This document shows, one piece after another, positions 3,572 through 45,199 of a stretch of 64,000 nt of DNA. Numbering within the stretch: the stretch's first letter is position 1; each line of letters begins with the position of its first letter. The notes beneath the pieces were generated by a model. That model worked only from the letters and a program-made list of their open reading frames with translations, was not told where the DNA came from and did not search any database. The DNA is from an uncultured Clostridia bacterium. Lineage in GTDB: Bacteria; Bacillota; Clostridia; TANB77; CAG-508. The stretch is from contig CAUWGC010000002.1 of assembly GCA_963558405.1 (NCBI GenBank), positions 40,852 to 104,851 on the forward strand, given 5' to 3'. The position numbers and the translations under genes are program-made.

Positions 3572-3588
3572 GACCTTCGGGTTATGAG
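3572..3588. repeat. attL core (17-bp direct repeat)
   Basis: It is identical to 45152-45168. Confidence 0.6.
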
Positions 3589-3647
3589 GAGATAAAGTCA
3601 TAATCTCAAAGCCCTTTATTCTCATAGGTTTGGAGATTTATTTTTTG

Positions 3648-3672
3648 TTTATACCCTTTATTTACCCTTTAT
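3648..3672. repeat. arm-type integrase-binding repeat (TTTATACCCTTTATTTACCCTTTAT)
   Basis: It is identical to 44998-45022 and consists of tandem ACCCTTTAT units. A third CCCTTTAT lies at 3613-3620. Confidence 0.5.
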
Positions 3673-3699
3673 CTTGTTTTATATACCTCTATATGCTTT

Positions 3700-4893
3700 T
3701 TAATCCATTTGTAAATCATCTAAATAAGCTTCTAATCTGTTCATTTGGGATAACTTAACTTGTCCTAATATATGGACATATATGTCTGCTGTTGTACTAT
3801 AACTAGCATGACCTAAAATTTCTTGCAAAACTCTTAAATCTATTCCTGCCTCAATAGATCTTGTTGCAAAAGTATGTCTTAATTCGTGAATTCCTACTTT
3901 TCTAAAATTATGGCTTTCACAAATTTGCTGACAATGTTTTCTTAAATATTCTGAATTTATTGGATTATTACACTTTGTTTTAAATATAAAATCATTTTCG
4001 TTAAATCCATCTCCTAATTCAGCAAGTGTTTCACTTTCATTTATTTTTTCTTCTTTATATTCTTTTAAAATTCTTATTACTTTATCTAGCATAGGAACAA
4101 CTCTATAACTGTTTTCTGTTTTTACATCTGTTACTTTTCGTTCTCTTTTTATCTTATTTAAATCATCATCATAAGTTGTAACTTTTTGAACTCCCCTTCT
4201 TACATAAAGAGCTTTATTTTCAAAATCAATATCTTTCCAAGTAAGTCCACTTAGTTCTCCTGCTCTTAATCCTGTATTTACTAAAACAATATATGCTGTT
4301 CCCATTGTGTGTTCTTTCATAAATCCTTCAAATATCTTTTGTTCCTCTTTAGTCATTATTTTTAGTTCTTTTCTTCTCATAGAAGGTAACTTTAATTTCT
4401 TTGTAGGATTCATTGTCATTAATCTACACATCATTGCATCATCAAAGCACATTTTTAATATGCTATTATAATGTCTTAATGATTTAGGCGATTTTCCTTC
4501 TTTTTGTAATTGACTAATAAATTTTTGTAAATGATATAACTCTATTTTTTGCAACTGCATATTACCTAAATACTCAATTATTTTCTTAGTTTTTTCAACA
4601 TACCCTTGATATGTTCTAGGCGAAATATAAGGCTTTTTATAAATTTTCATCCACTCTTTAATCCATTCTTCGAGTGTAACATTATTATTTTCTATAAAAT
4701 AATTATCATCCTTTTGCCTTCTCATTTCTTGCATTTTTTCTACTACAACTCTTTGAGTTTTCCCATATACAGAAACTTGTTTATTTTTACCATTTACACA
4801 AACTGTTACCCTCCCTTCATAACTATTTCCTCTTTTTCTTATTGTGCCTTCGCCTTTAATTCTTCTTGAAACTTTATCTTTACTCTTACTCAT
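3700..4893 (-). CDS. int: tyrosine site-specific integrase
   Basis: The C-terminal catalytic region reads HELRHTFATRSIEAGIDLRVLQEILGHASYSTTADIYVH. There is an N-terminal SAM-like domain. It sits next to the att core. Confidence 0.9.
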   Translation of the reverse strand: MSKSKDKVSRRIKGEGTIRKRGNSYEGRVTVCVNGKNKQVSVYGKTQRVVVEKMQEMRRQKDDNYFIENNNVTLEEWIKEWMKIYKKPYISPRTYQGYVEKTKKIIEYLGNMQLQKIELYHLQKFISQLQKEGKSPKSLRHYNSILKMCFDDAMMCRLMTMNPTKKLKLPSMRRKELKIMTKEEQKIFEGFMKEHTMGTAYIVLVNTGLRAGELSGLTWKDIDFENKALYVRRGVQKVTTYDDDLNKIKRERKVTDVKTENSYRVVPMLDKVIRILKEYKEEKINESETLAELGDGFNENDFIFKTKCNNPINSEYLRKHCQQICESHNFRKVGIHELRHTFATRSIEAGIDLRVLQEILGHASYSTTADIYVHILGQVKLSQMNRLEAYLDDLQMD

Positions 4894-4986
4894 TATCTCC
4901 CTCCCATAAAAAAGGGACTTATAATAATGGTAATTTAATATTGCTCATCCACTATTATAAATCCTATATCGTTTCAACTCCAAACC

Positions 4987-5172
4987 CTAAACAATAATTC
5001 TTCCTGAATTTTTATCAAACCATTCAATCATCTTAGGCTTGTTTATTACGATTCTTCTTTCAAATTTTATGCAAGGAAAATCTTTTAATTTAGTCAGTTC
5101 TGCCATAAGCTGTTTACTTATTCCTAATATTTCAGAAGCCTCTTGTATATTTATTCCTATTTTTTCATCCAT
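4987..5172 (-). CDS. xis: excisionase / AlpA-like HTH DNA-binding protein
   Basis: It is a 61-aa protein with an HTH (IQEASEILGISKQLMAELTK). It lies immediately upstream of int, in Xis position. Confidence 0.55.
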   Translation of the reverse strand: MDEKIGINIQEASEILGISKQLMAELTKLKDFPCIKFERRIVINKPKMIEWFDKNSGRIIV

Positions 5173-5384
5173 ATAGCAGATCCTCCTTCTTTTAATATTT
5201 CTTCAGCTTTTTTAACTGCCTCTCTTGGAGAATATAATTTCATCACACATTCAATTTCATCATTTAATAATTTTACACTTAAATCATTTGGTGCTACTCC
5301 TAAAGTATTTAAAGCAATAACTGCATAAGCTCTAGCTTGTTTTACAGTAACAGTTTTTACATTATTTAATTTCATTTTTATCAA
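5157..5384 (-). CDS. hypothetical small protein
   Basis: This is a 75-aa ORF between the regulatory region and xis-int. I recognise no motif. Confidence 0.3.
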   Translation of the reverse strand: MIKMKLNNVKTVTVKQARAYAVIALNTLGVAPNDLSVKLLNDEIECVMKLYSPREAVKKAEEILKEGGSAIWMKK

Positions 5385-5718
5385 TTCCTTTCACTTATAA
5401 ATTTTTTAATTAGTTACAAGCGAATTTAGTATCATTCACATAGGAATTGCACCTCTCCGTTTCCACCGAGCGACTCCTCAACTAAATTAAGCCGAGTCGA
5501 AGTATCATTATCACACTAATATAGATCTTCGCCTACATAAACTTACCATCGTTTACTTTTTCCCTCGTTATAGTCGCTATTTACTTTAAATTAACCTTCG
5601 CCTTCTTGGAGCTACCTACATTAGTTAAAGTCTTGTAACTAATATATTCACTTGTCAATGTTCATAGCAAATCTCACTTGCTACTCACATTGGCGAAAAA
5701 AATTTTAAAATGTCCCGA

Positions 5719-5949
5719 TTATTTTAAAAATTTTTTAATTTCTTTTATTGCTTTAAATTTTTCAATATTGTCAAAGACTCTATCTTCAATATATTCCTTA
5801 CATTCTTGATTAAATTTACCTTTTATATATGATTCTTTATTTATCAAAGGCTCAAATAAAATAAGAATCTCAAATTTTGATTTTGTATCTCCATTTACAG
5901 CTTTTTCAATAACATTAAATAATTCTTTATTACTCATCTCAATTTTCAT
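5719..5949 (-). CDS. hypothetical small protein (possible sigma-factor partner/region-2-like)
   Basis: A 76-aa ORF that ends 3 bp from the upstream sigma-like gene, so translation looks coupled. Confidence 0.35.
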   Translation of the reverse strand: MKIEMSNKELFNVIEKAVNGDTKSKFEILILFEPLINKESYIKGKFNQECKEYIEDRVFDNIEKFKAIKEIKKFLK

Positions 5950-5951
5950 TT

Positions 5952-6410
5952 CTATTCTCCTAACATTTTCTTTATTTTAGATTTAATAATACTTTTTTTA
6001 TTTCTAATTGTCTTTTCCGTTAAATTCATTTTATTAGCAATTTCTTTACTGCTATATTCATCAATACTTAATGCTAATATTTTCTTTTCATCTTGTGTTA
6101 AATTATGAATTGCTAATTTTAATTTCTTATTTGTAGTAATATCTTCTAATTCTCTTATTTCTGATATTTTTAAATCTTCAAAAGCAAAAAAAGAGTCGCT
6201 ATCATACAATGACAACGACACATTTCTGTCCACAAAATCAGTAAAAGTAATTTCTTTTACTGCTCCACTATCAACCTTTCTTGCAAAATCAATCGCAGAA
6301 TGTTTTACTACTTTTTTTACATATACTTTAAATGCCCTTACAACATACTCAACTTCACTTTCTGAATATTCTCTAGCACTCATAAAGATTACCTCCGTTC
6401 TAGGACACAC
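5952..6410 (-). CDS. sigma-70 region-4-like HTH protein (ICE regulatory sigma-like factor)
   Basis: The C-terminus LTQDEKKILALSIDEYSSKEIANKMNLTEKTIRNKKSIIKSKIKKML is a sigma-70 r4-type HTH. The true ATG is probably at 6383, where a GGAGG RBS precedes it. Confidence 0.6.
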   Translation of the reverse strand: MCPRTEVIFMSAREYSESEVEYVVRAFKVYVKKVVKHSAIDFARKVDSGAVKEITFTDFVDRNVSLSLYDSDSFFAFEDLKISEIRELEDITTNKKLKLAIHNLTQDEKKILALSIDEYSSKEIANKMNLTEKTIRNKKSIIKSKIKKMLGE

Positions 6411-6673
6411 TAAAGCCCATACAACGGAGGCAATATAAAAACATTACCTGAAAATATTTATTTTATATTATAAGAATTTTCAAAATCCTGTATCTATTCA
6501 TAATAAAAATCTCCTTTTAAACAAATAATCCATAATTGCCAAAGCATATAAAAATTCCATCCTTAGTCTTTTCTTAACACATCAACCTTAGTGTAAAATT
6601 ACATTACCTCGTATTTATGGACTATTTGTCCTGCTTAATATAATAGAACTTTTTAGCAAAATTTCATCAAAAT

Positions 6674-6721
6674 TGCTGAAAGGAACTGAAAAAGTGCTGA
6701 AAAATGCTGAAAAATGCTGAA
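6674..6721 (+). repeat. five direct repeats of (T)GCTGAAA with a 10-11 bp period
   Basis: Units lie at 6674, 6685 (degenerate), 6695, 6705 and 6715. The spacing matches a helical-turn period. They are upstream of the promoter of the Spo0A-like gene. Confidence 0.5.
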
Positions 6722-6726
6722 ATCCT

Positions 6727-6753
6727 TGTCGAATTATAGGAAGTTGTGTCGAT
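6727..6753 (+). promoter_or_regulatory. 0A-box-like sites: TGTCGAA (6727-6733) and TGTCGAT (6747-6753)
   Basis: The first matches the Spo0A box consensus TGNCGAA exactly. Both lie just upstream of the -35 of the Spo0A-like gene. Confidence 0.4.
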
Positions 6754-6757
6754 TAGA

Positions 6758-6786
6758 TTGAAACTTAACATAAAAAATGATATAAT
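6758..6786 (+). promoter_or_regulatory. sigma-A-type promoter: TTGAAA, 17-bp spacer, TATAAT
   Basis: The hexamers read directly from the sequence. The promoter is about 70 bp upstream of the 6855 start codon. Confidence 0.5.
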
Positions 6787-6854
6787 AAAACCCAGTTAGA
6801 TAAGCTAATTGAGAGCTTTTATACACTAATTGTAATTTTAATGGAGGGAATTAA

Positions 6855-7562
6855 ATGATTGAAGTTATGATTGCAGATGATAATACAGCACTTTGTGAAA
6901 GCTGTTTCAAATTTCTAACAAAAGATAAAGAAATAAAAATTGTTTCGTATGCCTTAAATGGCGAAGAAACACTAGAAAAATACTTTGAATTTAAACCTGA
7001 TGTATTATTATTAGACTTAGATATGCCTATAATAAGTGGCATTGATGTTATTAACACATTACATAGGTTTTCTGAAGAAAGATCAAAATGTAATATAATT
7101 GTTGTTTCAGGAAGTTATGAAAAATTAAATCAATTATATAATACAGCACAAGTTTTTAGAGTAATACCTAAACCTGCTAATTTTGATTACATATTAGAAA
7201 CAATAAAAGAAGTACCTTTAAAAAGCCAAGAAATAAACCAAAAAGAATTAAAAGAAATTCTAATAGAATTAAGATTAAATGTTTTCTCTACTAGAGTAAA
7301 ACACCTAATATCAGCAATAAATGTAGCATATAAACACCCTTATTTATTGAACAATATAAAAGACTTATATTCAGAAGTTGCAAAAGAATATAATATAAGT
7401 CCGAAAACAGTTAAATGGAGTATTAGAACTTCAATAGACACTTTAAATCGTTCTCTGTCTATTGATAATCTTTGCTCCGTTTTTTCTTTAAAATTTAGAC
7501 CTGATACAGTAACACCAAAATATTTTATAACTTTACTTGTAGAATATTTTGAGCAAGAATAA
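6855..7562 (+). CDS. Spo0A-family response regulator (REC domain + Spo0A_C DNA-binding domain)
   Basis: The REC domain has ADDN, the phospho-acceptor in LLLDLDMP and the lysine in IPKP. The C-terminal domain aligns with B. subtilis Spo0A_C: ILIEL..AI, LLNNIKDLYSEVAKEYNISPKTVKWSIRTSI, and PKYFITLL against PTNSEFIAMI. Confidence 0.75.
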   Translation: MIEVMIADDNTALCESCFKFLTKDKEIKIVSYALNGEETLEKYFEFKPDVLLLDLDMPIISGIDVINTLHRFSEERSKCNIIVVSGSYEKLNQLYNTAQVFRVIPKPANFDYILETIKEVPLKSQEINQKELKEILIELRLNVFSTRVKHLISAINVAYKHPYLLNNIKDLYSEVAKEYNISPKTVKWSIRTSIDTLNRSLSIDNLCSVFSLKFRPDTVTPKYFITLLVEYFEQE

Positions 7563-8246: not shown

Positions 8247-9623
8247 TTATGAATTTTTGTAATCATCCATATATTTTATATCATTTTCTTTGCAAAATTG
8301 AATTGCATCCTTATAAATCTCATCCTCATTATCCTTATTATCGTATAATTTTCTCGGAACAACTATAGACTTTTCAATTATTGCTTTATATTCTTTTTTA
8401 TTAAATAAATTTGCATCATATTCAGGTAACATATAAAAATCTGTTGCTACTTTATTTATAAACATACTCATCTTCTTAGAATAGTACATTGTAATATATA
8501 ATTCTTGTGTATTTTTCATAGGTAAAAGTTTCATAAGTCTTTTAATTGAAAGTACATCAATATTCATATCCAAAATTATTTTATGAAGTTTGTTTATTTC
8601 TTTTTCTTTTTTTACAAGTTCTTCAGCAGAAACATAATCATCCTCATCGTATTCATCAATATCATCATAATATATATCATATTTGCTTAAATCAGTTGTC
8701 TCAGTAATTTTTTCAATAACTCTTTTTGTTTTCTCTACTGGATATGGTGCATTTTCTCTTGTATAATATTGAGCATCTACTACAGTTGCAATTACTATAT
8801 TATCAGCCATATAAACTACAACTTTATCCCCTATTTTAATGTTTGTATCTTCTGACATATAGCAATATGTTTTTCCGTTATTATATTCATCATATTCAAC
8901 AGTTAAGTAATAATATTGTTCCTGTAAAGAATCAGGTATTTCATAATCTTTTCCTTCAATATCACTTTTAGCATCTTTCTTTTTATTATCTTCTTTTTCA
9001 GGGAATATCTGAATTATATAATTATATATCTCTTTTATTTCTTCCTTGTCAAAACATAAATTATAATAATTGGGAGATAATGCCCCATCCTCAAATAAAT
9101 TGATTCTCAAATCTACTAAATTATTAGTATATGTATAAAACTCTAAATCAGGCTCAATAAAACTTATACTTTCATCTTTTTTTAATTTATCATTTATGAA
9201 TTTTTGTAATAAATTTCTAAGTTCCACTACTTCAAATTCTAATAAAAGTTCGCCTTTGTTATTATAATTAAAATATTTATTTGAAATAGAGATTATAACA
9301 TCACACCACCTATCATAAGGATCGTGTTCAAAATCTTTTTTTCTAATAATCTTTAAATAAAAATCTGTATAATCATCAATTTTTAATCTTAAAAAATTAT
9401 TTTGTTCTTTTTTTGCTATTAAAATTTCCAATCGTGGTAAATATTCTTCTTTATTGTATTTATATATAGTTTCAGGAGAAGGGAGCATATATACATCTCT
9501 TTCTTCTAGCTTTCCTTCTTCGTACATTTTAATAGCTTGTATAAGTTCATCTCTTTCTTTATATAATTTTTGTAATGACCATTTCTTCTTTTCATCTATA
9601 TAAACTTCAGGACTTATCATCAT
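8247..9623 (-). CDS. hypothetical protein (acidic, 458 aa), co-operonic with Type III R-M
   Basis: It is a long, uninterrupted ORF lying 21 bp after the upstream gene. I recognise no motif. Confidence 0.45.
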   Translation of the reverse strand: MMISPEVYIDEKKKWSLQKLYKERDELIQAIKMYEEGKLEERDVYMLPSPETIYKYNKEEYLPRLEILIAKKEQNNFLRLKIDDYTDFYLKIIRKKDFEHDPYDRWCDVIISISNKYFNYNNKGELLLEFEVVELRNLLQKFINDKLKKDESISFIEPDLEFYTYTNNLVDLRINLFEDGALSPNYYNLCFDKEEIKEIYNYIIQIFPEKEDNKKKDAKSDIEGKDYEIPDSLQEQYYYLTVEYDEYNNGKTYCYMSEDTNIKIGDKVVVYMADNIVIATVVDAQYYTRENAPYPVEKTKRVIEKITETTDLSKYDIYYDDIDEYDEDDYVSAEELVKKEKEINKLHKIILDMNIDVLSIKRLMKLLPMKNTQELYITMYYSKKMSMFINKVATDFYMLPEYDANLFNKKEYKAIIEKSIVVPRKLYDNKDNEDEIYKDAIQFCKENDIKYMDDYKNS

Positions 9624-9644
9624 AATAACACCTTCTTTATTATC

Positions 9645-10637
9645 TTATACTCCACCTAATAAATTTAATGCAGTTTGTCCTAGAAGGTTTACCACTTCTG
9701 CATAAAACCATCCGTGTTTATCAAAATGATCTGTTAATTTTTGAAAGAAACCTTTTCTTTTATCAATATGTTTAGAATCCTTCATATTTTCTATTATTTC
9801 TTTAGTTTCCTCTAATAATTCCTGTAATACTTTTTTATCATCTTCATTATCGCATTTTTCTTCAATCTCTTGTTCTATTCTTGAAACTGAATTATCTATA
9901 TTTAAATTAGAATTAACAACATCTCCCATAACGAAATTACTATTAGTAGCAGTTAGATTGTTAATATTATATGTATTTGAACTTAATTTACTTAGTCTTT
10001 CGTTATGTTTTTTTTCTCTTTCAAAATATGTTCTTCCTGCTTGTGTTAATATTGCATTATAAACAGTATCACTTGCCCAACTTACTCTTATTAAACCATT
10101 TGAATCTAAAGTTCCTATTATCCCTCTAATAATATCTTTTTCATCATCATTAACTTTTTTCTCTAGGAACTCCGTTATATTACCATTTGAATTTTCTACT
10201 TTTATTATCTCATTTAATAGATTTTTTTCACTATCTGTTAATTCATCAAACAATTCTTCTCTACACCCTTTCTTTTCAAAATATTGCAAAGCTTCAGGAG
10301 TTAATGTTACAAACCACCCTCCATCAATAAAATTATTATAATTTGAGATATATCCATATAATTTTAAATCTTCCATTGTTTCTTTAATACAAAATCTCAT
10401 ATAATTTGGAAACTCCGACATATTTCCATTAACAGAATAATCTTTTTCTTCATTATACTTATTTAAAAAAACATTTAACATTATTTCTGCATTTTTACTT
10501 AAAATATTCATAGATAATCTCTCCTTATTTTGTTGTATCAATATCTCTTTTTGTTTTTTTCTGACAATTTCATCAACTTTTTTATTTAATTCTTTTTCTA
10601 TTTTTTTAGTATCAATTTTTATTTGAAATTTTGCCAT
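9645..10637 (-). CDS. hypothetical protein (330 aa), co-operonic with Type III R-M
   Basis: It starts 15 bp after the res stop. I recognise no motif. Confidence 0.45.
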   Translation of the reverse strand: MAKFQIKIDTKKIEKELNKKVDEIVRKKQKEILIQQNKERLSMNILSKNAEIMLNVFLNKYNEEKDYSVNGNMSEFPNYMRFCIKETMEDLKLYGYISNYNNFIDGGWFVTLTPEALQYFEKKGCREELFDELTDSEKNLLNEIIKVENSNGNITEFLEKKVNDDEKDIIRGIIGTLDSNGLIRVSWASDTVYNAILTQAGRTYFEREKKHNERLSKLSSNTYNINNLTATNSNFVMGDVVNSNLNIDNSVSRIEQEIEEKCDNEDDKKVLQELLEETKEIIENMKDSKHIDKRKGFFQKLTDHFDKHGWFYAEVVNLLGQTALNLLGGV

Positions 10638-10652
10638 TTATTCATCATCCTT

Positions 10653-35066: not shown

Positions 35067-35067
35067 T

Positions 35068-35820: not shown

Positions 35821-35844
35821 ATAATTTTACCTCCTTGTCAATGA

Positions 35845-35883: not shown

Positions 35884-35893
35884 GAAAAATTTT

Positions 35894-36385: not shown

Positions 36386-36999
36386 TAAAATTCCATCTCC
36401 TCTCCATTTTCTATTTGTGCCTCTAATTCTTGAATTTTATTATTTAAAGTTTCAACTTCTCCTTTTAATTTTAAATTTTCTTCTATTAGTAATCCTTTAT
36501 CTATTGCATTAGTTCTTGGATCTTCAAAGTCATTATTTATAGCCTTTATTTTACCCATACTCAAATATTGACTTTCTCCAACTATAATATGATCTGTTAG
36601 TTGAATATTAAATGCTTTTAACATTTTACCTGTAATATTTGTTATATGTTTATCAGGTTTACTTGGCTCTAAATCATTTGAAGGATGATTATGTACTAAT
36701 ATCACTTTTTCACTTGCTGTTATTAAAGCTGTTCTAACAATATATTTACTATCTACATATATTTCATTACATTTACCAACTCCAATTAAACTTATATTTC
36801 TAACATTATTTCTTGAATCTAATCCTATAAATAATAAATGCTCTTGAACAGCATCTTTTATTTCTTGTACTTCTTTTAATTTATATACATCATCTGAACT
36901 TGCTACTTTCATAATATCTCTTTCTTCTACTGGAGGCTTTTTTTGTATTTCTATTTCTAACCCCATACTTTTAAAACTCCATTTCATCTGTTTCTTCAA
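36385..36999 (-). CDS. RadC-like JAB domain protein (DUF2466)
   Basis: The JAB motif reads VILVHNHPSNDLEPSKPDKHITNIT. The ORF ends GEEMEF. Confidence 0.8.
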   Translation of the reverse strand: MKKQMKWSFKSMGLEIEIQKKPPVEERDIMKVASSDDVYKLKEVQEIKDAVQEHLLFIGLDSRNNVRNISLIGVGKCNEIYVDSKYIVRTALITASEKVILVHNHPSNDLEPSKPDKHITNITGKMLKAFNIQLTDHIIVGESQYLSMGKIKAINNDFEDPRTNAIDKGLLIEENLKLKGEVETLNNKIQELEAQIENGEEMEF

Positions 37000-37969
37000 T
37001 TTCTTCTAAGATAATTGTTCTATCTTCTAAATCTTTCTTAATATCTTCAATTTGACTTTCTTCAACAGATTTAAAATCTCCATTTTCGTAATCATCTCCA
37101 ATAATAAAACAGTTTCCTGCAATATAATCATAGTCAAATTGTAGATTAGGTTTTAAATTTGTAATTTTACCTTCTTCATTACATATAAGAAGTAAATCAT
37201 CTTTATAAGGCACAACTTCAATTAGTCCTCCAACTAATTTTTGTTTTGCCTCTAAGGTATCTTCAATTTCCATAACAATAGGATCTTTTCCCACTTCTTT
37301 ATAGACAATTCTCAACTTTTTTTCTTCAGATTCTTCTTCATCGTATCCTAGTTCTTCTTTTATTTCTTCTAAAGAATAATAATGTAAATCAATATCTCCA
37401 CAAGCTCCATTTTCAAGATAACCATTTTCATATAAACTAACATCATCATCCATACCATATTTTTCGTAGTCAAAACAATCAGTAACATAGTATTTTTCTA
37501 ATATTTCATCTAAGCCATTCCATATAGCTTTAGACATTCCATATTTTTCTTCGTTAGAAAGATTTTCTGAATTTTCTTCATAAGGATAAAAAGGTATATT
37601 ATCTTCTTGTAGCATAACATTTATTATTTCTTCTATATCATCTGTACCTTGATATTCAATATAAGCTTCAACAGCCTCCATATTATTTACTTTTTCAGAT
37701 GCCATTGCTAATAAATTAAGCATATTCAAATTACTATATTCACTAACTTTTATTGGTAAATCAGTTTCATAATCATTTATCATATATTCTTCATAACATA
37801 CACCATCTTCAGTGAGTGCTTTTTCAACTTCTTCTTGTGTTAATTGAAGTCCCACTTTTTCTCTTAAAAAAGTATCTAATTCTTTTTTAGAAACAGGAAG
37901 TTCTAACCATTCGCCAACAAGTTCTCCTTCGTTATATTTTCCTAAGTTTCCAATCCAAACATTAAGCAT
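36971..37969 (-). CDS. ardA: ArdA-like anti-restriction protein (double length, acidic C-terminal extension)
   Basis: The N-terminal VWIGNLGKYNEGELVGEWLELP is the ArdA signature. The protein is highly acidic and ends EETDEMEF. Confidence 0.65.
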   Translation of the reverse strand: MLNVWIGNLGKYNEGELVGEWLELPVSKKELDTFLREKVGLQLTQEEVEKALTEDGVCYEEYMINDYETDLPIKVSEYSNLNMLNLLAMASEKVNNMEAVEAYIEYQGTDDIEEIINVMLQEDNIPFYPYEENSENLSNEEKYGMSKAIWNGLDEILEKYYVTDCFDYEKYGMDDDVSLYENGYLENGACGDIDLHYYSLEEIKEELGYDEEESEEKKLRIVYKEVGKDPIVMEIEDTLEAKQKLVGGLIEVVPYKDDLLLICNEEGKITNLKPNLQFDYDYIAGNCFIIGDDYENGDFKSVEESQIEDIKKDLEDRTIILEEIEETDEMEF

Positions 37970-38013
37970 ATATACTCCTTCCTAAAAAAGAGCTAGTAAT
38001 ACTAACTCAATTT

Positions 38014-38343
38014 TTATATTTTTTGTAAAATATCTTTCATTAGAACTTCATCAACTAAACCATCTATCATTTGCTGATATTTAGCAAGTATAGTTATTTC
38101 GTGTGTATTAGGAGCTTCATATTTTTCTTTAATTTGTTTTTCTACTTGCTCTTTCAACTCTAAAATGTACTTTTCTCGCTCAAATATCTTAATTTCAAGT
38201 TTTCCTGTAAGCTCTAACTCTTGTTTTCTATATGGATAATTTTTTTCCATATTTGCTAAGATCATTTCTCCATACTTTCCAAAAATCATTTCAATTCCCT
38301 TCCTTCCATAATAAATTTTACAATACACCATAGGCTTATACAA
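38014..38343 (-). CDS. hypothetical protein
   Basis: A 109-aa ORF. Confidence 0.35.
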   Translation of the reverse strand: MYKPMVYCKIYYGRKGIEMIFGKYGEMILANMEKNYPYRKQELELTGKLEIKIFEREKYILELKEQVEKQIKEKYEAPNTHEITILAKYQQMIDGLVDEVLMKDILQKI

Positions 38344-38498
38344 AACCTAGAAACAAAAAAGAGATGTTAAGAACTTTCGCTCTTTTGCATCTCTCATACT
38401 TGTTTCATTATACTTATTATACTACTTATTTTTGATATTTCAACCTAGTCTTTTTTGTGTACTCTTTTTTGTGTGTACTTTTTTGTCTAGTATTTTTG

Positions 38499-38993
38499 TT
38501 AAACTTTTTTATCCTTTGATTTTAACTTTTCTATCTCCATATTATCTTCTAGTTCATTTAACCTTTCAAATTCATTTATCAATGTATTTATTGGAATATT
38601 CAAATCTAGTATAGGTTTTAGCATTTTTTCTAATTCATTTATCTTCTTATCTTTTTCTTTTACTTGATATTCAAGTTGTTTTGTGTATTCATCTATTTTG
38701 TCATCATTTATTAAATATGTTTTTTCTTTTTCAAATTTTATTCCATTTACTTCGCAACTTTTATCCCAATTAGGATTTTGATATTGTTTACTTTCTTCAT
38801 TAAAATTTATTCTATGTTGTAATAATAATGTTCTTAATAAAAACTCTGTATCACGATTCACTTCATCAAATGCAGTTTCTGTAGCAATAAATACTAGGTC
38901 TTTATACATATTTCTCAAAACATCTATACTTAAATCTTCTATCGGTTGTTCCATATAATTATTATAATTTTTCTTAAAATCATCCCAAAGCAT
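38499..38993 (-). CDS. hypothetical protein
   Basis: A 164-aa ORF. Confidence 0.4.
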   Translation of the reverse strand: MLWDDFKKNYNNYMEQPIEDLSIDVLRNMYKDLVFIATETAFDEVNRDTEFLLRTLLLQHRINFNEESKQYQNPNWDKSCEVNGIKFEKEKTYLINDDKIDEYTKQLEYQVKEKDKKINELEKMLKPILDLNIPINTLINEFERLNELEDNMEIEKLKSKDKKV

Positions 38994-38994
38994 A

Positions 38995-39549
38995 TTACTT
39001 TTCTCCTTCCTTTAATTTTTCTTCATAATATACAAAAATATCATCAATTTTCCTATCTCCAAAACATCTTTTATAATCTTCTTGTTCGTTTTCTTTCCAC
39101 CATTCAAATTTCTCTTTTATTTTATTTCTTACCTTTGTAGTATCTATGTTAGAATTCTTTTCTATAGCTAACAAAACATTTATACTATCCCAACCACTAA
39201 TTGAGACATCAAAGTATCTTATTGCTTCATAACCAAATTCATCTTTAGTTTCTTCTATTTTTCTATCATAAGAAATATATAAGTAGTCATCCTTAAATAA
39301 ATGATTTTCCTTTACATATTCATAATATAAATCTTTTACTCCTGAAGTTTTAACAAAACCTGTCAAATACCATATCGTTTTACTTCTAAATTTAATGTAA
39401 TCCTTTGGTAGATCTTTCTCTTTAATTTTGGTAGGATGCCATCCTAATGAATATAAATACTCGTTTTTTTCATCAATTGGTCTCCAAGTTTTTCTATCAA
39501 ATTTTCCTTTTGAATACCAATATGAATTTATCTTTTTCATCTTTATCAC
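38995..39549 (-). CDS. hypothetical protein
   Basis: A 184-aa ORF that overlaps the downstream metallophosphoesterase gene by 4 bp. Confidence 0.4.
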   Translation of the reverse strand: MIKMKKINSYWYSKGKFDRKTWRPIDEKNEYLYSLGWHPTKIKEKDLPKDYIKFRSKTIWYLTGFVKTSGVKDLYYEYVKENHLFKDDYLYISYDRKIEETKDEFGYEAIRYFDVSISGWDSINVLLAIEKNSNIDTTKVRNKIKEKFEWWKENEQEDYKRCFGDRKIDDIFVYYEEKLKEGEK

Positions 39550-40388
39550 CCCTTAAACATATATAAGTCATTATAGTTTGTGTCGGTATCTATTATTGCA
39601 TAAAACATATCTTTATTACCTCTTTCTGTTTGCCCTGTTTGTATGCAAATTGTCCCATTCAATTCATTTTTCCAAATTCCTGTAACTCTATAAGATTCGT
39701 GAATATGACCGTGTAAAGACATATAAGCATTACTTTTTTCTAAGAAATTAGTTATTGCTTTTGAGCCTACTTGTCGTTTATCCATACATACATCTAGTCC
39801 TATTCCAAATGGTGGATTATGAAATACATAAATAACCTTTTTTCCTTCTGTTGCTTTAGGTAAATGTTCTAAGACATTTTCCATTTTTTCTATATTATTT
39901 CTATATTCTTTCCATTCATCAACAGATAACATATTTCTACATTTTTCGACATATATTATTCTTGATAATTGAAACTGCATTTCTAAATTTTTCTCAATTA
40001 CGACTCTATCTTTACAGCCAAAAGGATGGTCTAATACTTTAGATAATCCTATAAATGAATTATTTTCAATATCTACCTTTTTATTATCTATATTAAATAC
40101 ATTATCAAATTTGCTACACTCATTTTCAAATATTTCATCTAATTGTTCTAAATCATCATTTCCTAATATACAAATACATTTAATATTATTTTTTTTCAAT
40201 TCGGTAAAATAATTATCGAAAAATTGCTCTATAAATATTTTTTGTTCATTATATCTATCGCTACAATTTTTAGGTAATAGATCTCCTCCAAATACTAAAT
40301 ATTCTACTTTTTGTTTTATTGTCTCTTCTAATAATTTTTTGTATTTATATTCATCTCCGTGAATATCACTGGCATATATAAATTTCAT
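39546..40388 (-). CDS. calcineurin-like metallophosphoesterase
   Basis: The family motifs are present: DIHGD, GGDL, GNDD and HGHIH. Confidence 0.7.
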   Translation of the reverse strand: MKFIYASDIHGDEYKYKKLLEETIKQKVEYLVFGGDLLPKNCSDRYNEQKIFIEQFFDNYFTELKKNNIKCICILGNDDLEQLDEIFENECSKFDNVFNIDNKKVDIENNSFIGLSKVLDHPFGCKDRVVIEKNLEMQFQLSRIIYVEKCRNMLSVDEWKEYRNNIEKMENVLEHLPKATEGKKVIYVFHNPPFGIGLDVCMDKRQVGSKAITNFLEKSNAYMSLHGHIHESYRVTGIWKNELNGTICIQTGQTERGNKDMFYAIIDTDTNYNDLYMFKG

Positions 40389-40579
40389 TATTCTCCTCCC
40401 TTCGATCTTTTGTTTTTATACCATTCTCTTATTGCACTACCTAAAGCCACTTTCTCCTTACCATAATTTTCACTTGGAAAATCTGATAAGTTATAAATAA
40501 TTAGTGCTGTCGGTACACTACACTTTCTTAATTTTGCAAACTCAGTCGGTGTATAAAAAATATTATCATTTAGTTCCAT
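40388..40579 (-). CDS. hypothetical small protein
   Basis: A 63-aa ORF. Confidence 0.3.
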   Translation of the reverse strand: MELNDNIFYTPTEFAKLRKCSVPTALIIYNLSDFPSENYGKEKVALGSAIREWYKNKRSKGGE

Positions 40580-40594
40580 TTTTAACTCCTGTTT

Positions 40595-40924
40595 TTAAAT
40601 GTTTAGCATATTCATTGATTCAAAATAAATATATGCCTCTTTAAAACCTAATTTAAAGGATTCTTTTAATTCAATAACATCAAGTTCTCCTTGTAATTCA
40701 AGAATCTCCAAAATTGCTTTCTGTTCAGCATTATTTAATTCTACATTCTCTTTTTCTTCTAAGAATTTAATTACATTTGGGTATTTTTCTTTTAAATTAC
40801 ATATCTTCTGATTTAATTTCTTATATTCTTTCTTTTGTAAAACATTCAATACTTTGTGCTTATCAAAATATTCCCAGAAATCATCAGAATATGTGTCAAA
40901 AAAACCTTCTTCAAAATTTTCCAT
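40595..40924 (-). CDS. hypothetical protein
   Basis: A 109-aa ORF with conserved promoter copy 4 upstream. Confidence 0.4.
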   Translation of the reverse strand: MENFEEGFFDTYSDDFWEYFDKHKVLNVLQKKEYKKLNQKICNLKEKYPNVIKFLEEKENVELNNAEQKAILEILELQGELDVIELKESFKLGFKEAYIYFESMNMLNI

Positions 40925-40951
40925 TTAATATCCCTCCTATCCTATTTTTGC

Positions 40952-40990
40952 ATTATATAGAATAAAAAAAGACAATCCCAAACCTTTTTA
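40952..40990 (-). promoter_or_regulatory. conserved ICE promoter motif copy 4
   Basis: On the minus strand: AAAAAGGTTTGGGATTGTCTTTTTTTATTCTATATAAT. Confidence 0.5.
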
Positions 40991-41088
40991 TAAAAAAATT
41001 AAAAATGTGCCACTTTATACAGCGACACATCTTTATATTATATACAAATTCCTTCATTTTCAAGTATTTAATTATTTTTATTTTAATT

Positions 41089-41343
41089 TTAATTTATTTC
41101 ATCTATCACTTCCTCATTTAAAATTTTCTTTAAAAGTTCTAATTTGGTTTCAGCTTTTATTCTTAACTCTTTTTCTCGTTCATACATTTCTTTACTAATA
41201 GAATCTCCACCTACTTTTATTTTGTATTGTCCTCCCTCAGTTTTTATATACTCGACTTCTTTATTATATAGTAATTGTAATGCAACATTATAACCTATCT
41301 TCCTTCGTTTCATAAACTCACTTAAACTAATCCATTCTTCCAT
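41089..41343 (-). CDS. small HTH DNA-binding protein
   Basis: It contains LSEFMKRRKIGYNVALQLLYNKE. The ORF is 84 aa. Confidence 0.4.
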   Translation of the reverse strand: MEEWISLSEFMKRRKIGYNVALQLLYNKEVEYIKTEGGQYKIKVGGDSISKEMYEREKELRIKAETKLELLKKILNEEVIDEIN

Positions 41344-41688
41344 TTAATTCACTTCTTTCTCACTAGGTATCTTATTAACAAAACATCCTATATTTAATTT
41401 TTTCATCTTGGATATTTCTTCATCTAACTGTCTTTCAGTAGTAATTCCATATTTTCTTAATTCCTTTACAATGACTTTATTATTTGTAAGAATGTATTTT
41501 AAATCAATATCCCTTGTATCTTGTTGTTGTCCTACAAATTCTAAGAACTTGCTTTTAATGATAACATAGTTCCATTTGCCTGTTTTTGATTGAATAGCTG
41601 TCCCAAAATCAAACCTTCCCTGTCTTAAACCTGCTCTTATAAATTCAGGATTTTTATTTATTATTTTTCCTGCCTCTATAGGAGTCAT
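41344..41688 (-). CDS. hypothetical protein
   Basis: A 114-aa ORF with conserved promoter copy 5 upstream. Confidence 0.4.
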   Translation of the reverse strand: MTPIEAGKIINKNPEFIRAGLRQGRFDFGTAIQSKTGKWNYVIIKSKFLEFVGQQQDTRDIDLKYILTNNKVIVKELRKYGITTERQLDEEISKMKKLNIGCFVNKIPSEKEVN

Positions 41689-41763
41689 TGTTTCAACTTT
41701 TTCTATTTACATTCCCCCCTTTACTATAAAAATTTAATGTGTGTCGTTCCGCAAACTAATAAC

Positions 41764-41803
41764 ATTATAAAATAATTTAAAAGACAATCCCAAACCCTTT
41801 TTA
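41764..41803 (-). promoter_or_regulatory. conserved ICE promoter motif copy 5
   Basis: On the minus strand: AAAAAGGGTTTGGGATTGTCTTTTAAATTATTTTATAAT. Confidence 0.5.
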
Positions 41804-41845
41804 TAAAAAATTTACAAAAAAAAATAAAGCTAGTACAATAATGCA

Positions 41846-42394
41846 CTAGCTAACTTGTTTTAATAAAAATTCATATAATTCTTTAGTTGTTTTTAATATT
41901 AAATCAGCTCTAACAAAACAAGGTTTCTCATTGTAGTTATTTCCCTTTCCATCGTTAGAATATCTTAGTTTACAACCATCATCATCTATTATATTTAATA
42001 CCTCTATTAACATATCAAAATCAGTATTACTTATATTTACCTCGTTTTTTAATTCTTTCCATAATTCCTTTAATTTATGTATTTTCTTAATTTTTCCTTG
42101 TTTACTATTTAATACTGCTTTAATAGATAGTTCTATTGTATGCCTACACAAAAATAAAAAAGGCATACACATTTGATTTGTTCTAAATACTTTTATTTTT
42201 TCATCAGGATTATTTTCACTACGAAAGAACACATATAAACATTCTGCTGAATGTAAATAAGCATCTATTATCTCTCTTTCTGCTGTTTTATTTCTAAGTT
42301 CTTCTTTAAAAAAAGGAGAAAGAGAAATACAATCCCATTTATAAACTTCTTCTGTAAGTCCATTAAATTTATATCTTATATATTTATTTTCCAT
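41846..42394 (-). CDS. hypothetical protein
   Basis: A 182-aa ORF. Confidence 0.4.
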   Translation of the reverse strand: MENKYIRYKFNGLTEEVYKWDCISLSPFFKEELRNKTAEREIIDAYLHSAECLYVFFRSENNPDEKIKVFRTNQMCMPFLFLCRHTIELSIKAVLNSKQGKIKKIHKLKELWKELKNEVNISNTDFDMLIEVLNIIDDDGCKLRYSNDGKGNNYNEKPCFVRADLILKTTKELYEFLLKQVS

Positions 42395-42411
42395 ATTGAA
42401 AACTCCTGTTA

Positions 42412-42639
42412 CTACAAAGTATTGTAATATTCTTCTAATTCTTTTCTTTCTTTTTGAGTTAAACTATCATATACATTGTCTATTTCTGTATCTGCAATAT
42501 TGTGTTCATCTAAAAATGCTTTATGTTTTAAATCCCAATATTTTCTTTTTATATTTTTTATATTTATATCTTTAATTGCATCAATTTCTTTAGGATTCAT
42601 TGCACAATTATATTTTTCTAAAAACTCATCTAAATTCAT
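42412..42639 (-). CDS. hypothetical small protein
   Basis: A 75-aa ORF. Confidence 0.3.
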   Translation of the reverse strand: MNLDEFLEKYNCAMNPKEIDAIKDINIKNIKRKYWDLKHKAFLDEHNIADTEIDNVYDSLTQKERKELEEYYNTL

Positions 42640-42703
42640 TTTACTTCAACTCACTTTCAAATTGTTTGTAGTGATATTATACCATATCTTTAATAAAATA
42701 GCA

Positions 42704-43147
42704 TTAAGTATTAAGAATATTCTTATTTATCAAATTATTAAAAGTTGCTAGTATTCCTATTTCAAAATAGATGTCATTTATATAAGTTCTAACTGTTGTT
42801 TTAGAAACATATAATTCATCTGCAATAATATCTTCAGGGATATTACCAAAAAACTTGTATTCAACAACTTTCAATTTTGTTTTATCACATTTTCTTAACT
42901 CCTGAAGAATATTATCAATTAGTTCTTTCCATTCTTTATATTCTTTTATTTTGCTGTCTATACTAATATTCTTTATAACTTGTGATTCTACTTTTCTATT
43001 TATTTTATTTTTACTTCTTATTGAAGAATTTATATCTCTGCCTTCAGTAGTATCTTTCTCTAATTCTAGTTCATTTATTAGCCTATCATAAATTGGATAT
43101 TCATATAATTTTTTTCTAATTATCTTCTTTACTTTTTTTGTAACCAT
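42704..43147 (-). CDS. sigma-70 region-4-like / ArpU-family transcriptional regulator
   Basis: ADELYVSKTTVRTYINDIYFEI reads as an r4-type HTH. A GGAGG RBS precedes the start. Confidence 0.45.
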   Translation of the reverse strand: MVTKKVKKIIRKKLYEYPIYDRLINELELEKDTTEGRDINSSIRSKNKINRKVESQVIKNISIDSKIKEYKEWKELIDNILQELRKCDKTKLKVVEYKFFGNIPEDIIADELYVSKTTVRTYINDIYFEIGILATFNNLINKNILNT

Positions 43148-43160
43148 CTTTTCCTCCTAA

Positions 43161-43189
43161 AATAAAAAATCACAACCTTTTAAGTTGTG
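43161..43189 (-). terminator. terminator-like hairpin immediately after repA stop
   Basis: A CACAAC...GTTGTG stem is followed by a T-run on the minus strand. Confidence 0.35.
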
Positions 43190-43957
43190 TTACATATCTA
43201 AATCCATTTCATCTTCTTCAGTATTTTCTGAAGCAAAATTATTATTTTCATATAAACTATCAAAAAATTCTTTAGGATATTCTCTTTGATCATAATTAGC
43301 AAAACTTTTCTTTTTAGTAACTTTTTTATCTTGTCTTGATTCTAATTCATCAACTCTTAATATTACCCATCTTTTAATTGTTGCAAAATCGCTTTTATAT
43401 TCCACTCCTTTTGATCTCTTATATAAAGAAAGTTCTTCTATACATTTATTAGCTTTAGTTTCTCCGTATTCATTAACTAAATCAGTATATTCGTAATTAT
43501 ATAAATACACATTATCTAAAAATTTTTCTTTGCTAACTGTGTGTGTATTTATATTATTATATTTTATATTATTATCTTCTACTTTTTCATCACTACCCTG
43601 GTGATTATTTAATACATAGGGGTAGTGATTTTTTGATAGATAGGGTATATCATTTGGATATATCTTTCGCTGAATAATCTCTTGCTGTTCATTTCTAATA
43701 ATATCTATAACTAAATAATTATATTTTCTTAAATTCGTAATCCATCTTGAAACAGTTTTATGATCTACTCCTAGTTTTTCTCCCAAATACTTATTACTCG
43801 CATAACAATATCCTTCTTTATTTGAAAGAGCAGTAATAAGAGCATATAACAATTTTTCATTTGGTTTTAACTCATTATTAAATAAAACTGTTGCAGGAAT
43901 TACAGCAAAATATCCTATTCTATTTATTTCATTCTGTGTATCCACTTCTCCTATCAC
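43190..43957 (-). CDS. replication initiator (Firmicute RepA_N family)
   Basis: The N-terminus YFAVIPATVLFNNELKPNEKLLYALITALSNKEGYCYASNKYLGEKLGV matches the RepA_N pattern. The ORF ends EEDEMDLDM. Confidence 0.55.
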   Translation of the reverse strand: MIGEVDTQNEINRIGYFAVIPATVLFNNELKPNEKLLYALITALSNKEGYCYASNKYLGEKLGVDHKTVSRWITNLRKYNYLVIDIIRNEQQEIIQRKIYPNDIPYLSKNHYPYVLNNHQGSDEKVEDNNIKYNNINTHTVSKEKFLDNVYLYNYEYTDLVNEYGETKANKCIEELSLYKRSKGVEYKSDFATIKRWVILRVDELESRQDKKVTKKKSFANYDQREYPKEFFDSLYENNNFASENTEEDEMDLDM

Positions 43958-44068
43958 TTTCCTTTCCTGCTACTATACAAGCATATAAAATTAAAATTAA
44001 ACTTAAATTTGCTCCTACAAATAATCCTATTATTAATCCTATCAAAAACATAATTTACACCTCCATAT

Positions 44069-44485
44069 TCAAGCCAAATTTCTTATTTGGGCATTTTTAT
44101 ACACGAACTCAATTAACTTGTCCTTTATTATTTTTTGTTTCTTAAAATTGAATTTAAGAGTTTCCTCAATTTCATCTTTAGACTTATTTTTTAAATATTT
44201 TAGATTTATAAAATCGTAGTATTTAGGATATTTTTGCATTAAAAAAGCAAGTACCTTTTTTATCAGTACCTGCCATCTCTTAAATTCTAATATTTTTCTA
44301 TTTTCTATTATTTTAATTACCTGATTTTCTAAAGTATTGTTACATACCGTTATGCCTTTTCTCCAAGCATTTCCGCTTACATTAACACTACTTATCAAAC
44401 CATCTTTTATCTCATCAATCATTTCATCTATATTATTATAATTATACAAATAAAATTCTACTTTTTTATACTCTTGTTTTGTCAT
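44069..44485 (-). CDS. hypothetical protein (possible ArpU/RinA-like regulator)
   Basis: A 138-aa ORF in the regulatory module. The assignment is weak. Confidence 0.3.
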   Translation of the reverse strand: MTKQEYKKVEFYLYNYNNIDEMIDEIKDGLISSVNVSGNAWRKGITVCNNTLENQVIKIIENRKILEFKRWQVLIKKVLAFLMQKYPKYYDFINLKYLKNKSKDEIEETLKFNFKKQKIIKDKLIEFVYKNAQIRNLA

Positions 44486-44939
44486 CTCCCTGTCCTCCTT
44501 GAAGTAATTTTTTTAATTCAAGGACAAAGAATTCTGCATCTATCTCATTATAATTATTTTCTTCAAAATCTAAGATTACATCAACAATATATTTATCGTT
44601 GTAATCTTCTATGTTTCTTATTATTTTTCCTAAGTCCCTTTTATTATACATTAGCAATATTGTGCTTTTATTATAAAGTTTATCTTGTGCATTAAGTATA
44701 GCAATTTCTAATTCTTCTAGCAATTCTTCAAATAATACAGAAGTATTAGTTACTTCTTCTAGTGAAGTTCCAACATCCGTAGCTAATCTAAGCCACTCTA
44801 TAAAGTAAAAATCTTCAACAAATTCATCGTACTTTTCATTCATTTCTTCTATTTTATTATAAATACATTTTAATCTTGCTATTTTATTTATTTCATTTAC
44901 TAAATCTAAAATTTTCTCTTTTTCCATAAAAACCTCCAA
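44466..44939 (-). CDS. hypothetical protein
   Basis: A 157-aa ORF. Confidence 0.4.
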   Translation of the reverse strand: MEVFMEKEKILDLVNEINKIARLKCIYNKIEEMNEKYDEFVEDFYFIEWLRLATDVGTSLEEVTNTSVLFEELLEELEIAILNAQDKLYNKSTILLMYNKRDLGKIIRNIEDYNDKYIVDVILDFEENNYNEIDAEFFVLELKKLLQGGQGDDKTRV

Positions 44940-44997
44940 AAAAACAACTTCAGCGATTGCTGAAGTTATTGATATTTCAATATTAAATTACATTATT

Positions 44998-45022
44998 TTA
45001 TACCCTTTATTTACCCTTTATG
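44998..45022. repeat. arm-type repeat at right end of ICE (identical to 3648-3672)
   Basis: It reads TTTATACCCTTTATTTACCCTTTAT. TTTTAATGCT direct repeats lie at 45040-45070. Confidence 0.5.
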
Positions 45023-45082
45023 AAACAAATTTTAATGCTTTTTAACGGTTTTTAATGCTCTTAAATGGATTTTTCAGAGAAA

Positions 45083-45115
45083 TAAAAAATCCTCTGTAAC
45101 TAGCTTTAACAGAGG
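45083..45115 (-). terminator. rho-independent terminator of tRNA-fMet
   Basis: The hairpin CCTCTGTTAAAGCTAGTTACAGAGG is followed by ATTTTTTATTT on the minus strand. Confidence 0.55.
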
Positions 45116-45123
45116 TATTTCAA

Positions 45124-45199
45124 TGGTTGCGGGGGATAGACTCGAACTATCGACCTTCGGGTTATGAGCCCGACGAGCTGCCAACTGCTCCACCCCGCG
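45124..45199 (-). tRNA. initiator tRNA-fMet (anticodon CAT)
   Basis: The reverse complement CGCGGGGTGGAGCAGTTGGCAGCTCGTCGGGCTCATAACCCGAAGGTCGATAGTTCGAGTCTATCCCCCGCAACCA is nearly identical to E. coli tRNA-fMet. It has the C1:A72 mismatch, the GGG/CCC anticodon stem, and an encoded CCA. Confidence 0.9.
45152..45168. repeat. attR core inside the tRNA anticodon loop, 3' anticodon stem and variable region
   Basis: It is identical to 3572-3588. Confidence 0.6.

Follow-up and report, generated by a model that had tools for sequence, protein, structure and literature searches.

The 64,000-nt stretch of DNA analysed here (the window; forward strand, positions 40,852-104,851 of contig CAUWGC010000002.1, assembly GCA_963558405.1) comes from an AT-rich uncultured Clostridia bacterium (GTDB: Bacteria; Bacillota; Clostridia; TANB77; CAG-508) and carries a putative 41.6-kb integrative and conjugative element (ICE) lodged in an initiator tRNA gene. 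All coordinates are positions in the window, and L-numbers (L003, L028-32, L034, L039-L044, L046 and L053-L059) denote compared contigs outside it. The 17-bp sequence GACCTTCGGGTTATGAG occurs exactly twice in the 64 kb, at 3572-3588 and 45152-45168, where shuffled sequences give an expectation of zero, and no further copy is found even when two mismatches are allowed. The right copy lies within a tRNA-Met(CAT) gene (45124-45199, minus strand) called by both ARAGORN and Rfam (62.4 bits), and covers tRNA positions 32-48, comprising the anticodon loop, the 3' side of the anticodon stem and the variable loop. Bacterial initiator tRNAs are marked by a mismatch at C1:A72 and by an anticodon stem with three G-C pairs. 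Both can be read from the sequence of this gene, which is thus taken as an initiator tRNA (tRNA-fMet). We refer to the distal, integrase-side copy of the attachment (att) core as attL (3572..3588, minus strand; the chromosomal side carries no tRNA sequence) and to the proximal copy inside the working tRNA as attR (45152..45168, minus strand). The initial annotation of this DNA, which placed a 41.6-kb ICE bounded by 17-bp repeats at the anticodon region of tRNA-fMet, is borne out by the exact cores, the tRNA calls and the gene content.

The integration genes are located beside attL, as had been annotated. A 397-aa tyrosine integrase (Int; 3700..4893, minus strand; Pfam Phage_integrase, 4e-29, plus SAM-like domains) has its stop codon (3700) 111 nt from the core, and a 61-aa excisionase-like HTH_17 protein (Xis; 4987..5172, minus strand; Pfam HTH_17, 1.3e-6) is encoded directly upstream of int in the window and in all relatives. 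The solved structures nearest to the integrase are 3nkh and the Int proteins 6emy/6en0, the latter presumably the Tn1549 integrase, and an N-terminal extension of 65-70 residues precedes the SAM-like domain. The 25-bp sequence TTTATACCCTTTATTTACCCTTTAT is found exactly twice in the window, again with none expected, and in the same orientation. One copy belongs to the integrase-side arm region (3612..3672, minus strand), which consists of the double arm repeat at 3648-3672 and a third half-site at 3612-3619, and the other forms the tRNA-side arm repeat (44997..45021, minus strand). The existence of these repeats inside both ends was correctly annotated, with the second copy displaced by one base (44998-45022). 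Of the seven CCCTTTAT half-sites in the window, five are found near the two cores, no more than ~130 bp away and with a common orientation, and the blocks ATAAAGGGNAAATAAAGGG and TGAGAATAAAG hold their position and distance amid otherwise diverging sequence in relatives whose integrases are 82-88% identical. We read the conserved blocks and clustered half-sites as a phylogenetic footprint of arm-type sites. In the predicted circular form (attP), the identical 25-bp double repeats and the third half-site would flank the core on both sides, the arrangement that characterizes heterobivalent integrases.

Nearly all genes between the cores lie on the minus strand. The conjugation module (24900..33780, minus strand; Pfam domains scanned in ICE open reading frames (ORFs) of ≥80 aa) encodes VirB4 (26178-28010; PF12846, 6e-14), a TrbL_4/VirB6-like protein (29170-30027), the VirD4 coupling protein (30415-32217; PF02534, 9e-64, and PF12696), a MOB-P relaxase (32573-33511; PF03432, 1.3e-38) and NikA/MobC (33472-33780), together with an MT-A70 methylase, an M23 hydrolase, a pilin-like protein and DUF3846. 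The MOB-P/VirD4/VirB4 set proposed earlier is present according to Pfam and, for VirD4, also NCBIfam, where the protein passes the CD1115-family cut-off (348.6 bits vs 250). VirB4 falls below every NCBIfam cut-off, scoring 162.1 bits against the 325 required for the CD1110 family; its best NCBIfam match is the Mbov_0397 family of the Mycoplasma ICE (405.6 bits, cut-off 590), ahead of the clostridial CD1110. A RepA_N initiator, also annotated initially, had to be given up, as the candidate (43190-43957, minus strand) matches HTH_36 alone in Pfam, with the threshold relaxed to E≤1, and no family in NCBIfam. Base composition gave no boundary for the ICE, with a GC content of ~25-26% in the element and in both flanks, and the interval 3589-45123 contains no complete tRNA gene. 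With an integrase flanked by att repeats, and a relaxase, coupling protein and VirB4 in one element, the interval from 3572/3589 to 45151/45168 is very probably a complete, recently mobile ICE with a conjugation system of the Tn1549/CTn4-like type.

The distribution of the ICE points to movement between hosts. The exact integrase protein is encoded on 65 contigs, compared with 16 for the host ComEA. Look-ups with exact proteins showed the integrase end adjoining at least eight different flanks, with CTCATAACCCGAAGGT always 111 nt past the int stop, and the tRNA-side end was found in five further contexts. Across contexts the ICE ends share 99.6-100% identity with the window, with no match between the window and any of the host flanks, implying conjugative transfer; from these sequences, the ICE appears to be moving between species now. 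Other ICE variants, with integrases 82-88% identical, have the same core and arm blocks in at least five more flank contexts. The alternative that the island is a fixed relic with leftover repeats would account for the failure to detect either a circular form or an empty site, but it is scarcely credible given that the mobility genes are all intact, that both cores and both arm repeats are exact, and that near-identical ends recur in at least eight unrelated flanks. According to the initial annotation, the lack of any strain with an uninterrupted tRNA-fMet/flank junction would speak against an ICE. Such a strain was indeed not found, yet this is the wrong yardstick: mobility is evident without an empty site because the same ICE, with the same termini, resides in at least eight other contexts.

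A contig from another sample (L003) indicates which part of the tRNA gene belongs to the ICE. In L003, ComEA, the promoter and the tRNA 5' half are identical to the window, and identity ends past 45151. The T stem reads GTAAG/CTTAC in L003 vs GATAG/CTATC in the window, the changes being compensatory, and the tRNA is followed by a different integrase that is 26% identical to the ICE Int and in reversed orientation. The stretch 45169..45240 (minus strand), comprising the tRNA 5' part (45169-45199) and the promoter TTGACA-17-TATACT (45240 to 45212), is common to contigs bearing a different element. The remainder of the tRNA, i.e., the T arm, the acceptor 3' strand and ACCA (45124..45151, minus strand; positions 49-76), is followed directly by a hairpin with a 7-bp stem (45091-45097/45109-45115), an 11-nt loop and a U-tract (45080..45115, minus strand; sequence reading and fold, z = -2.3). 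A consensus terminator scan passed over the hairpin at 45091-45115 because of its 11-nt loop; the structure nevertheless has the features of a terminator for the rebuilt tRNA. Core, tRNA 3' part and terminator accompany the ICE in all other hosts found, the 3' part being of the GATAG type except in L056, and in L054, L057 and L058 this 3' part adjoins non-tRNA DNA. The hybrid of chromosomal 5' part and ICE 3' part folds as a cloverleaf. Judged from these comparisons, the ICE supplies the tRNA 3' half, and the chromosomal promoter and 5' half joined to it make up the tRNA-fMet gene; the earlier claim that the element brings its own 3' half and terminator agrees with the divergence of L003 past 45151 and with the hairpin. 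The exceptional ICE copy (L056, 3760-3804) has the T stem GTAAG/CTTAC followed by normal ICE sequence, and the T-stem variant may therefore be swappable between elements or with resident tRNA halves.

The right flank of the ICE is ordinary chromosome (ComEA, DacA, LytR, CvpA and an ABC transporter), while the left flank encodes a Big_2 protein, Fic-HTH, ASCH and ArsC, continuing in longer contigs to RecQ, DprA, ComM-like genes and rpoB. If integration takes place at the anticodon loop, the native 3' half of the tRNA (~28 nt) is expected just beyond the far core. Outside attL the window reads AACCAAATAG..., without T arm or acceptor strand, and a search of positions 1-3571 for a displaced or older tRNA fragment or a further core gave nothing above shuffles. 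The 'AACCA' past the left core was considered as a tRNA 3' end left by a 23-nt deletion and was rejected, since its alignment score equalled the null and a weak resemblance to the L053 flank was its sole basis. The empty site predicted by the initial annotation, an intact tRNA-fMet followed by the left flank, is contradicted by the flank itself, which begins right after the core without T arm or acceptor strand in all strain types.

The same two junctions also bound other elements. The exact Big_2 flank protein is encoded on 23 contigs, 14 of them with the ICE and five with other cargo, namely TnpV with PIN and methylases, DpnII-MboI, or Kiwa KwaA/KwaB. In these five, similarity to the window is lost where the core has its inner edge, at 3588 (3592 in one of them), and their junction, element|CTCATAACCCGAAGGCC·AACCAAATAG, is the same core-only site with one single-nucleotide polymorphism. 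The L003 element has the arm motif TTGGGGAAAAGTTGGGGAAGAAATCCTC, which is found next to the tRNA in L003 and also, in L039, L043 and L044, ~130 nt inward of the distal core; the L003-type island can thus be taken to span the same slot. This second integrase lineage is placed next to the tRNA and points the other way. It shares the 17-bp core, possesses a double arm repeat of its own (TTGGGGAAAAGTTGGGGAAG) and carries variable defence cargo (Kiwa, DpnII-MboI or PIN/methylases/TnpV) at the far end; its islands are represented by L003 1111-2596, L039 7400-7673, L041, L042, L043 and L044. On this contig evidence, four kinds of element occupy the tRNA-to-core slot in the host species. The core-only distal site is common to strains with the ICE and strains with other elements, which suggests that loss of the displaced half predates all current occupants. 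The core difference between them (GGTC with the ICE, GGCC with other elements) was examined as a mark of the crossover side and discarded, being confounded with strain background (flanks differ by 0.6-0.8%).

Given a chromosome without a spare 3' half, cutting out the ICE would break this copy of the tRNA gene, and ARAGORN indeed finds no tRNA in the product of a simulated precise excision. No empty or fused site is present among ~20 junction-spanning contigs of the host species; for each flank the sampling amounts to ~20 short contigs from metagenomes, many of them broken at the tRNA, and a rare empty site could be missed. A ComEA-based scan of GTDB representatives returned only two irrelevant distant matches, with neither a close host relative nor an empty site. 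In a sister species (ComEA 69% identical) the right-flank synteny is the same, and behind tRNA-fMet lie a terminator, arm-like repeats and an integrase in fragments. The tRNA-fMet of this species (L059, 8862-8937) has a compensatory anticodon-stem change (TTGGG/CCCAA) and a core altered by one base (CCCAAAGG), which might affect which elements can use it. In a lineage with 61% identical ComEA, the tRNA is accompanied by a terminator, arm-like repeats and an integrase truncated to 166 aa, and one at 56% has this same ICE at the tRNA (L055). In the sample of L055, the other end of the ICE has pyrophosphatase, MazG and an ArsC (62% identical to that of the window) as neighbours, and we infer that a single insertion is represented by its two ends on the two contigs. 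ComEA is not accompanied by a tRNA-fMet in a more distant lineage. All four lineages with a tRNA-fMet beside ComEA therefore have an element or an integrase-bearing remnant after it, and no empty site appeared in the three related lineages.

These data bear on the simplest account, a recent insertion into an intact tRNA-fMet whose old neighbour is the present left flank and whose whole-tRNA empty site persists in the population. This textbook pattern agrees with the rebuilt tRNA and with the exactness of the 17-bp direct repeat, and L053, another host of the same ICE, keeps a full-length but mutated displaced 3' half. In the host species, though, the flank past the distal core is devoid of T arm and acceptor strand whether or not the ICE is present; the loss is older than the arrival of the ICE, given how little its copies differ between hosts; and no empty site appears in the junction-spanning contigs or the sister lineages. 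A simple recent insertion is accordingly very improbable. Among the remaining hosts of the identical ICE, L046 retains a handful of bases from the T arm, after which comes a relic of the right end of a related ICE, and nothing tRNA-like is detectable past the core in the others. Of the relatives, L028-32 keep 15 nt of the T arm and L034 a diverged stub.

The similarity to tRNA stops exactly at core position 47/48 in eight of 12 independent flank contexts. The edge may arise if the core is rewritten from the element's attP at each turnover while the rest decays, or it may be a recombination scar. In the latter vein, the core-only distal sites could be products of the integrase at secondary sites, formed by integration or deletion to a core-like sequence, with the edge as the crossover point. 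The edge is reached in differing contexts (GGTC, GGTT and GGTA) after 16 perfect nucleotides, a uniformity that random decay would not give. Nevertheless, the full 17-bp core is also intact beside non-tRNA DNA at the other end, which no single crossover model fits, the ComEA...ArsC neighbourhoods are conserved in two species, arguing that the distal flank is the old neighbourhood of the tRNA, and the T-arm remnants in L028-32, L046 and L034, with the full one in L053, show tRNA ancestry at some sites. Secondary-site integration as the general explanation is, in our judgement, quite unlikely.

At the tRNA-side end, the full core and ICE 3' half abut non-tRNA DNA in four of the five other contexts, and this DNA carries FtsK/SpoIIIE, HEPN_AbiU2, nSTAND3 or helicase genes. 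We infer that such ends are element-to-element junctions in tandem arrays; this is the simpler reading, because no single crossover position would allow insertion at a secondary site to yield an entire core at each of the two junctions. Tandems have been described for Firmicute ICEs as well as integrative and mobilizable elements (PMC12084326), and tandem arrays at one tRNA gene (tDNA) are known for tDNA islands (PMC4383910).

The outer boundary in the window could alternatively lie further left, with Big_2 and Fic-HTH (~1020-3274) as the decayed edge of an older tandem element and the core at 3572 as an element-element junction. A 64%-identical Big_2 protein is encoded in DNA adjoining another ICE copy, near FtsK and AbiU2 genes, many metagenome contigs break within or before Fic and ASCH, and the L046 flank past the core is the relic mentioned above. 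On the other hand, neither another core nor a piece of tRNA is present in positions 1-3571 (where the highest alignment scores match those from shuffles), all four occupant types have the same junction and the same Big_2 flank, and the contig break points are scattered, with no single position. We therefore hold a boundary further to the left to be unlikely. The Big_2 protein (2552-3274) is itself secreted, with the N-terminal motif HSGRTDSSGGH...YHYHCGG, and its homologue is located at 795-1550 of L057; it may be mobile cargo.

The combined observations suggest a model of how the slot operates. The integrase would recombine a 16-17-bp core corresponding to initiator tRNA positions 32-47/48, the crossover lying somewhere within it, with the arm-type repeats on either side of the core in the circular form probably guiding recombination and the Xis-like protein probably guiding excision. 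The far end of the ICE, carrying tRNA positions 49-76 and the terminator, would then rebuild tRNA-fMet with the chromosomal promoter and 5' half. The slot seems to be shared and long-occupied; between the same two junctions lie at least three further kinds of element, which an unrelated integrase (26% identical) drives. If a lone occupant were excised precisely, the gene left behind would be truncated and no longer a tRNA gene, possibly at a fitness cost, and turnover would likely proceed by integration of a newcomer next to the resident, in tandem, followed by loss of the resident. We tentatively propose that the ComEA-linked initiator tRNA gene of these Clostridia, of which the chromosome retains just the promoter, the 5' half and a bare distal core of 16-17 nt, depends on mobile elements, every working copy being completed by a slot occupant (the ICE, an island of the second integrase type or a remnant) that may be replaced via a tandem, not simply lost; if this is the sole or main initiator gene, the 28-nt piece would be an addiction module. 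Real dependence would hinge on the number of initiator tRNA genes in the host; contig ends within the tRNA are unusable for counting tRNA-fMet copies, as the sequence is common to several species in the same metagenomes.

Several observations weigh against this model. The predicted attP junction (...TTATCTC-CTCATAACCCGAAGGTC-GATAGTTCGAG...) was not found in scans of Joint Genome Institute (JGI) metagenomes and IMG/VR, which returned zero hits, and the JGI scan for the chromosomal remnant, the fused attB (...GCTCGTCGGG-CTCATAACCCGAAGGTC-AACCAAATAG...), likewise returned zero. With neither the attP circle nor an empty or fused attB found, excision of the window copy was not directly observed. 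The N-terminal 70 residues of the integrase match no Pfam arm-binding family; arm binding is suggested by the repeats. For the tandem step, no second core is present within 3.7 kb of the tRNA-side ends that abut non-tRNA DNA, and the neighbours in L054 look like chromosomal housekeeping genes. IMG/VR scans for each ICE end also gave zero matches.

The element can be compared with several known systems. Members of the Tn1549 family are defined by a MOB-P7 relaxase (PF03432), VirD4 (PF02534 and PF12696) and VirB4 (PF12846), with topoisomerase III in the backbone (PMC12084326). The ICE has the defining triad and the MobC/NikA partner, and resembles the Tn1549 family and the CTn4-like ICEs of C. 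difficile in having integrase, Xis, sigma factor and HTH_16 at one end, in encoding ArdA, a VirB6-like protein and a cell-wall hydrolase, and in the position of its integrase near the 6emy/6en0 Int among solved structures. Its VirD4 reaches the cut-off of the CD1115 family, which we take to be that of CTn4. Against membership, VirB4 remains under the CD1110-family cut-off, no topoisomerase domain was found in the Pfam-scanned ORFs, and, unlike the Tn1549 family, the ICE is strictly site-specific at tRNA-fMet. By its domain triad the conjugation module qualifies as Tn1549 family, relatedness being judged here from domains. The plasmid and phage databases hold no close relative of the element; its relaxase shares no more than 41% identity with any protein of the plasmid set and has no match among solved structures. 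Similar to the Tn916 family, the ICE has a tyrosine Int, an HTH_17 Xis, a sigma-70 region-4 protein and HTH_16 at its recombination and regulation end, and it encodes a second Tn916-Xis-like protein. Tn916 targets AT-rich sites and has a conjugation module of another type, whereas the ICE has a MOB-P relaxase and VirD4 and a specific 17-bp core.

As an island, the ICE conforms to class A, the anticodon-centred tDNA islands of Williams and the Islander database, in that its core starts at the anticodon loop, the integrase is a tyrosine recombinase, and the 3' part of the tRNA is carried and the gene regenerated. It departs from this class in the displaced 3' fragment expected at the far end, of which just the 17-nt core is left; the 'damaged' displaced fragments described in Islander have only small deletions. 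Islander sorts initiator tDNAs as a class, and islands in initiator tRNA genes may thus already be catalogued there. We found no ICE or island targeting an initiator tRNA in the literature, although the searchable literature is incomplete and this is weak evidence of absence. A Sinorhizobium paper was set aside as a precedent, as the prophages there carry tRNA-fMet genes and do not integrate into them. A functional parallel is the tRNA-dependent lysogeny of actinobacteriophages, where integration breaks a tRNA and a separate, complete phage tRNA compensates (Guerrero-Bustamante and Hatfull 2024; PMC10865867). In both cases host tRNA function comes to rest on element-borne sequence, but the ICE is the mirror image: its integration rebuilds the tRNA, no complete tRNA gene is carried, and excision would break the gene. 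The ICE itself is of an ordinary, anticodon-class tRNA-targeting and Tn1549/CTn4-like kind, and what sets the site apart is that it is a long-occupied and probably tandem-prone hotspot.

The exact integrase on 65 contigs, with hundreds of protein clusters at 81-90% identity, marks a widespread ICE lineage of gut-type AT-rich Clostridia that targets the 16-17-bp initiator tRNA core and carries restriction-modification (R-M), HEPN, WapI-immunity and adhesin cargo between species. At a long-occupied hotspot such as this one, the usual test for a tRNA island, a whole-tRNA empty site and a displaced fragment, can fail, and island finders that need a displaced tRNA fragment longer than the core would miss such an ICE or mis-bound it. 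If the host has few initiator tRNA genes, completing one of them would be a simple way for elements to become hard to lose; were it the sole or main initiator gene, the addiction-like tRNA piece would stabilize ICEs and defence islands without a toxin.

The remaining genes of the ICE are grouped by function. A regulatory block (5157..7562, mixed strands) contains a 75-aa ORF, HTH_16 (5719-5949), the sigma-70 region-4 protein (5952-6410) and a response regulator whose C-terminal DNA-binding domain is that of Spo0A (6855-7562), the sole ICE gene on the plus strand and an unusual one for a conjugative element. Between the 75-aa ORF and the HTH_16 gene lies a pemK RNA motif (Rfam RF02913; 5438-5511, minus strand; 51.1 bits vs a gathering threshold of 34.8). 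The cargo region (8247..14534, minus strand) encodes a WapI-like immunity protein, a 330-aa protein and a type III R-M pair (res 10653-12884, mod 12885-14534). It is followed by a surface region (15872..21112, minus strand) with the second HTH_17/Tn916-Xis-like protein, a 1055-aa thioester/SpaA-repeat surface adhesin (16287-19454, minus strand) whose SpaA repeats are visible as 276-297-bp tandem repeats, a 232-aa protein and a sortase (20468-21112). Beyond the conjugation module, the leading and maintenance region (33880..44939, minus strand) encodes ParB-like, RadC, ArdA-DUF3846, metallophosphoesterase, DUF6664 and HEPN proteins, the HTH_36 protein and small unknown proteins. A promoter-like motif, AAAGGGTTT[T/G]GGATTGTC...TATAAT, is present upstream of five ICE operons on the minus strand (16135-16152, 20441-20458, ~35850-35880, 40971-40988 and 41783-41800), with 0.03 copies expected by chance, and may be read by the sigma-70 region-4 protein of the ICE.

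At the right edge of the window, a gene for a 443-aa tyrosine integrase is found beside a Fic gene (61731-63933, minus strand). The protein is 29% identical to the ICE Int in its C-terminal part, and a 41-nt stretch of its gene (62747-62787) is 93% identical to the ICE int gene (3842-3882). A tRNA-Arg at 56436-56512 was noted together with this integrase, which may mark another island.

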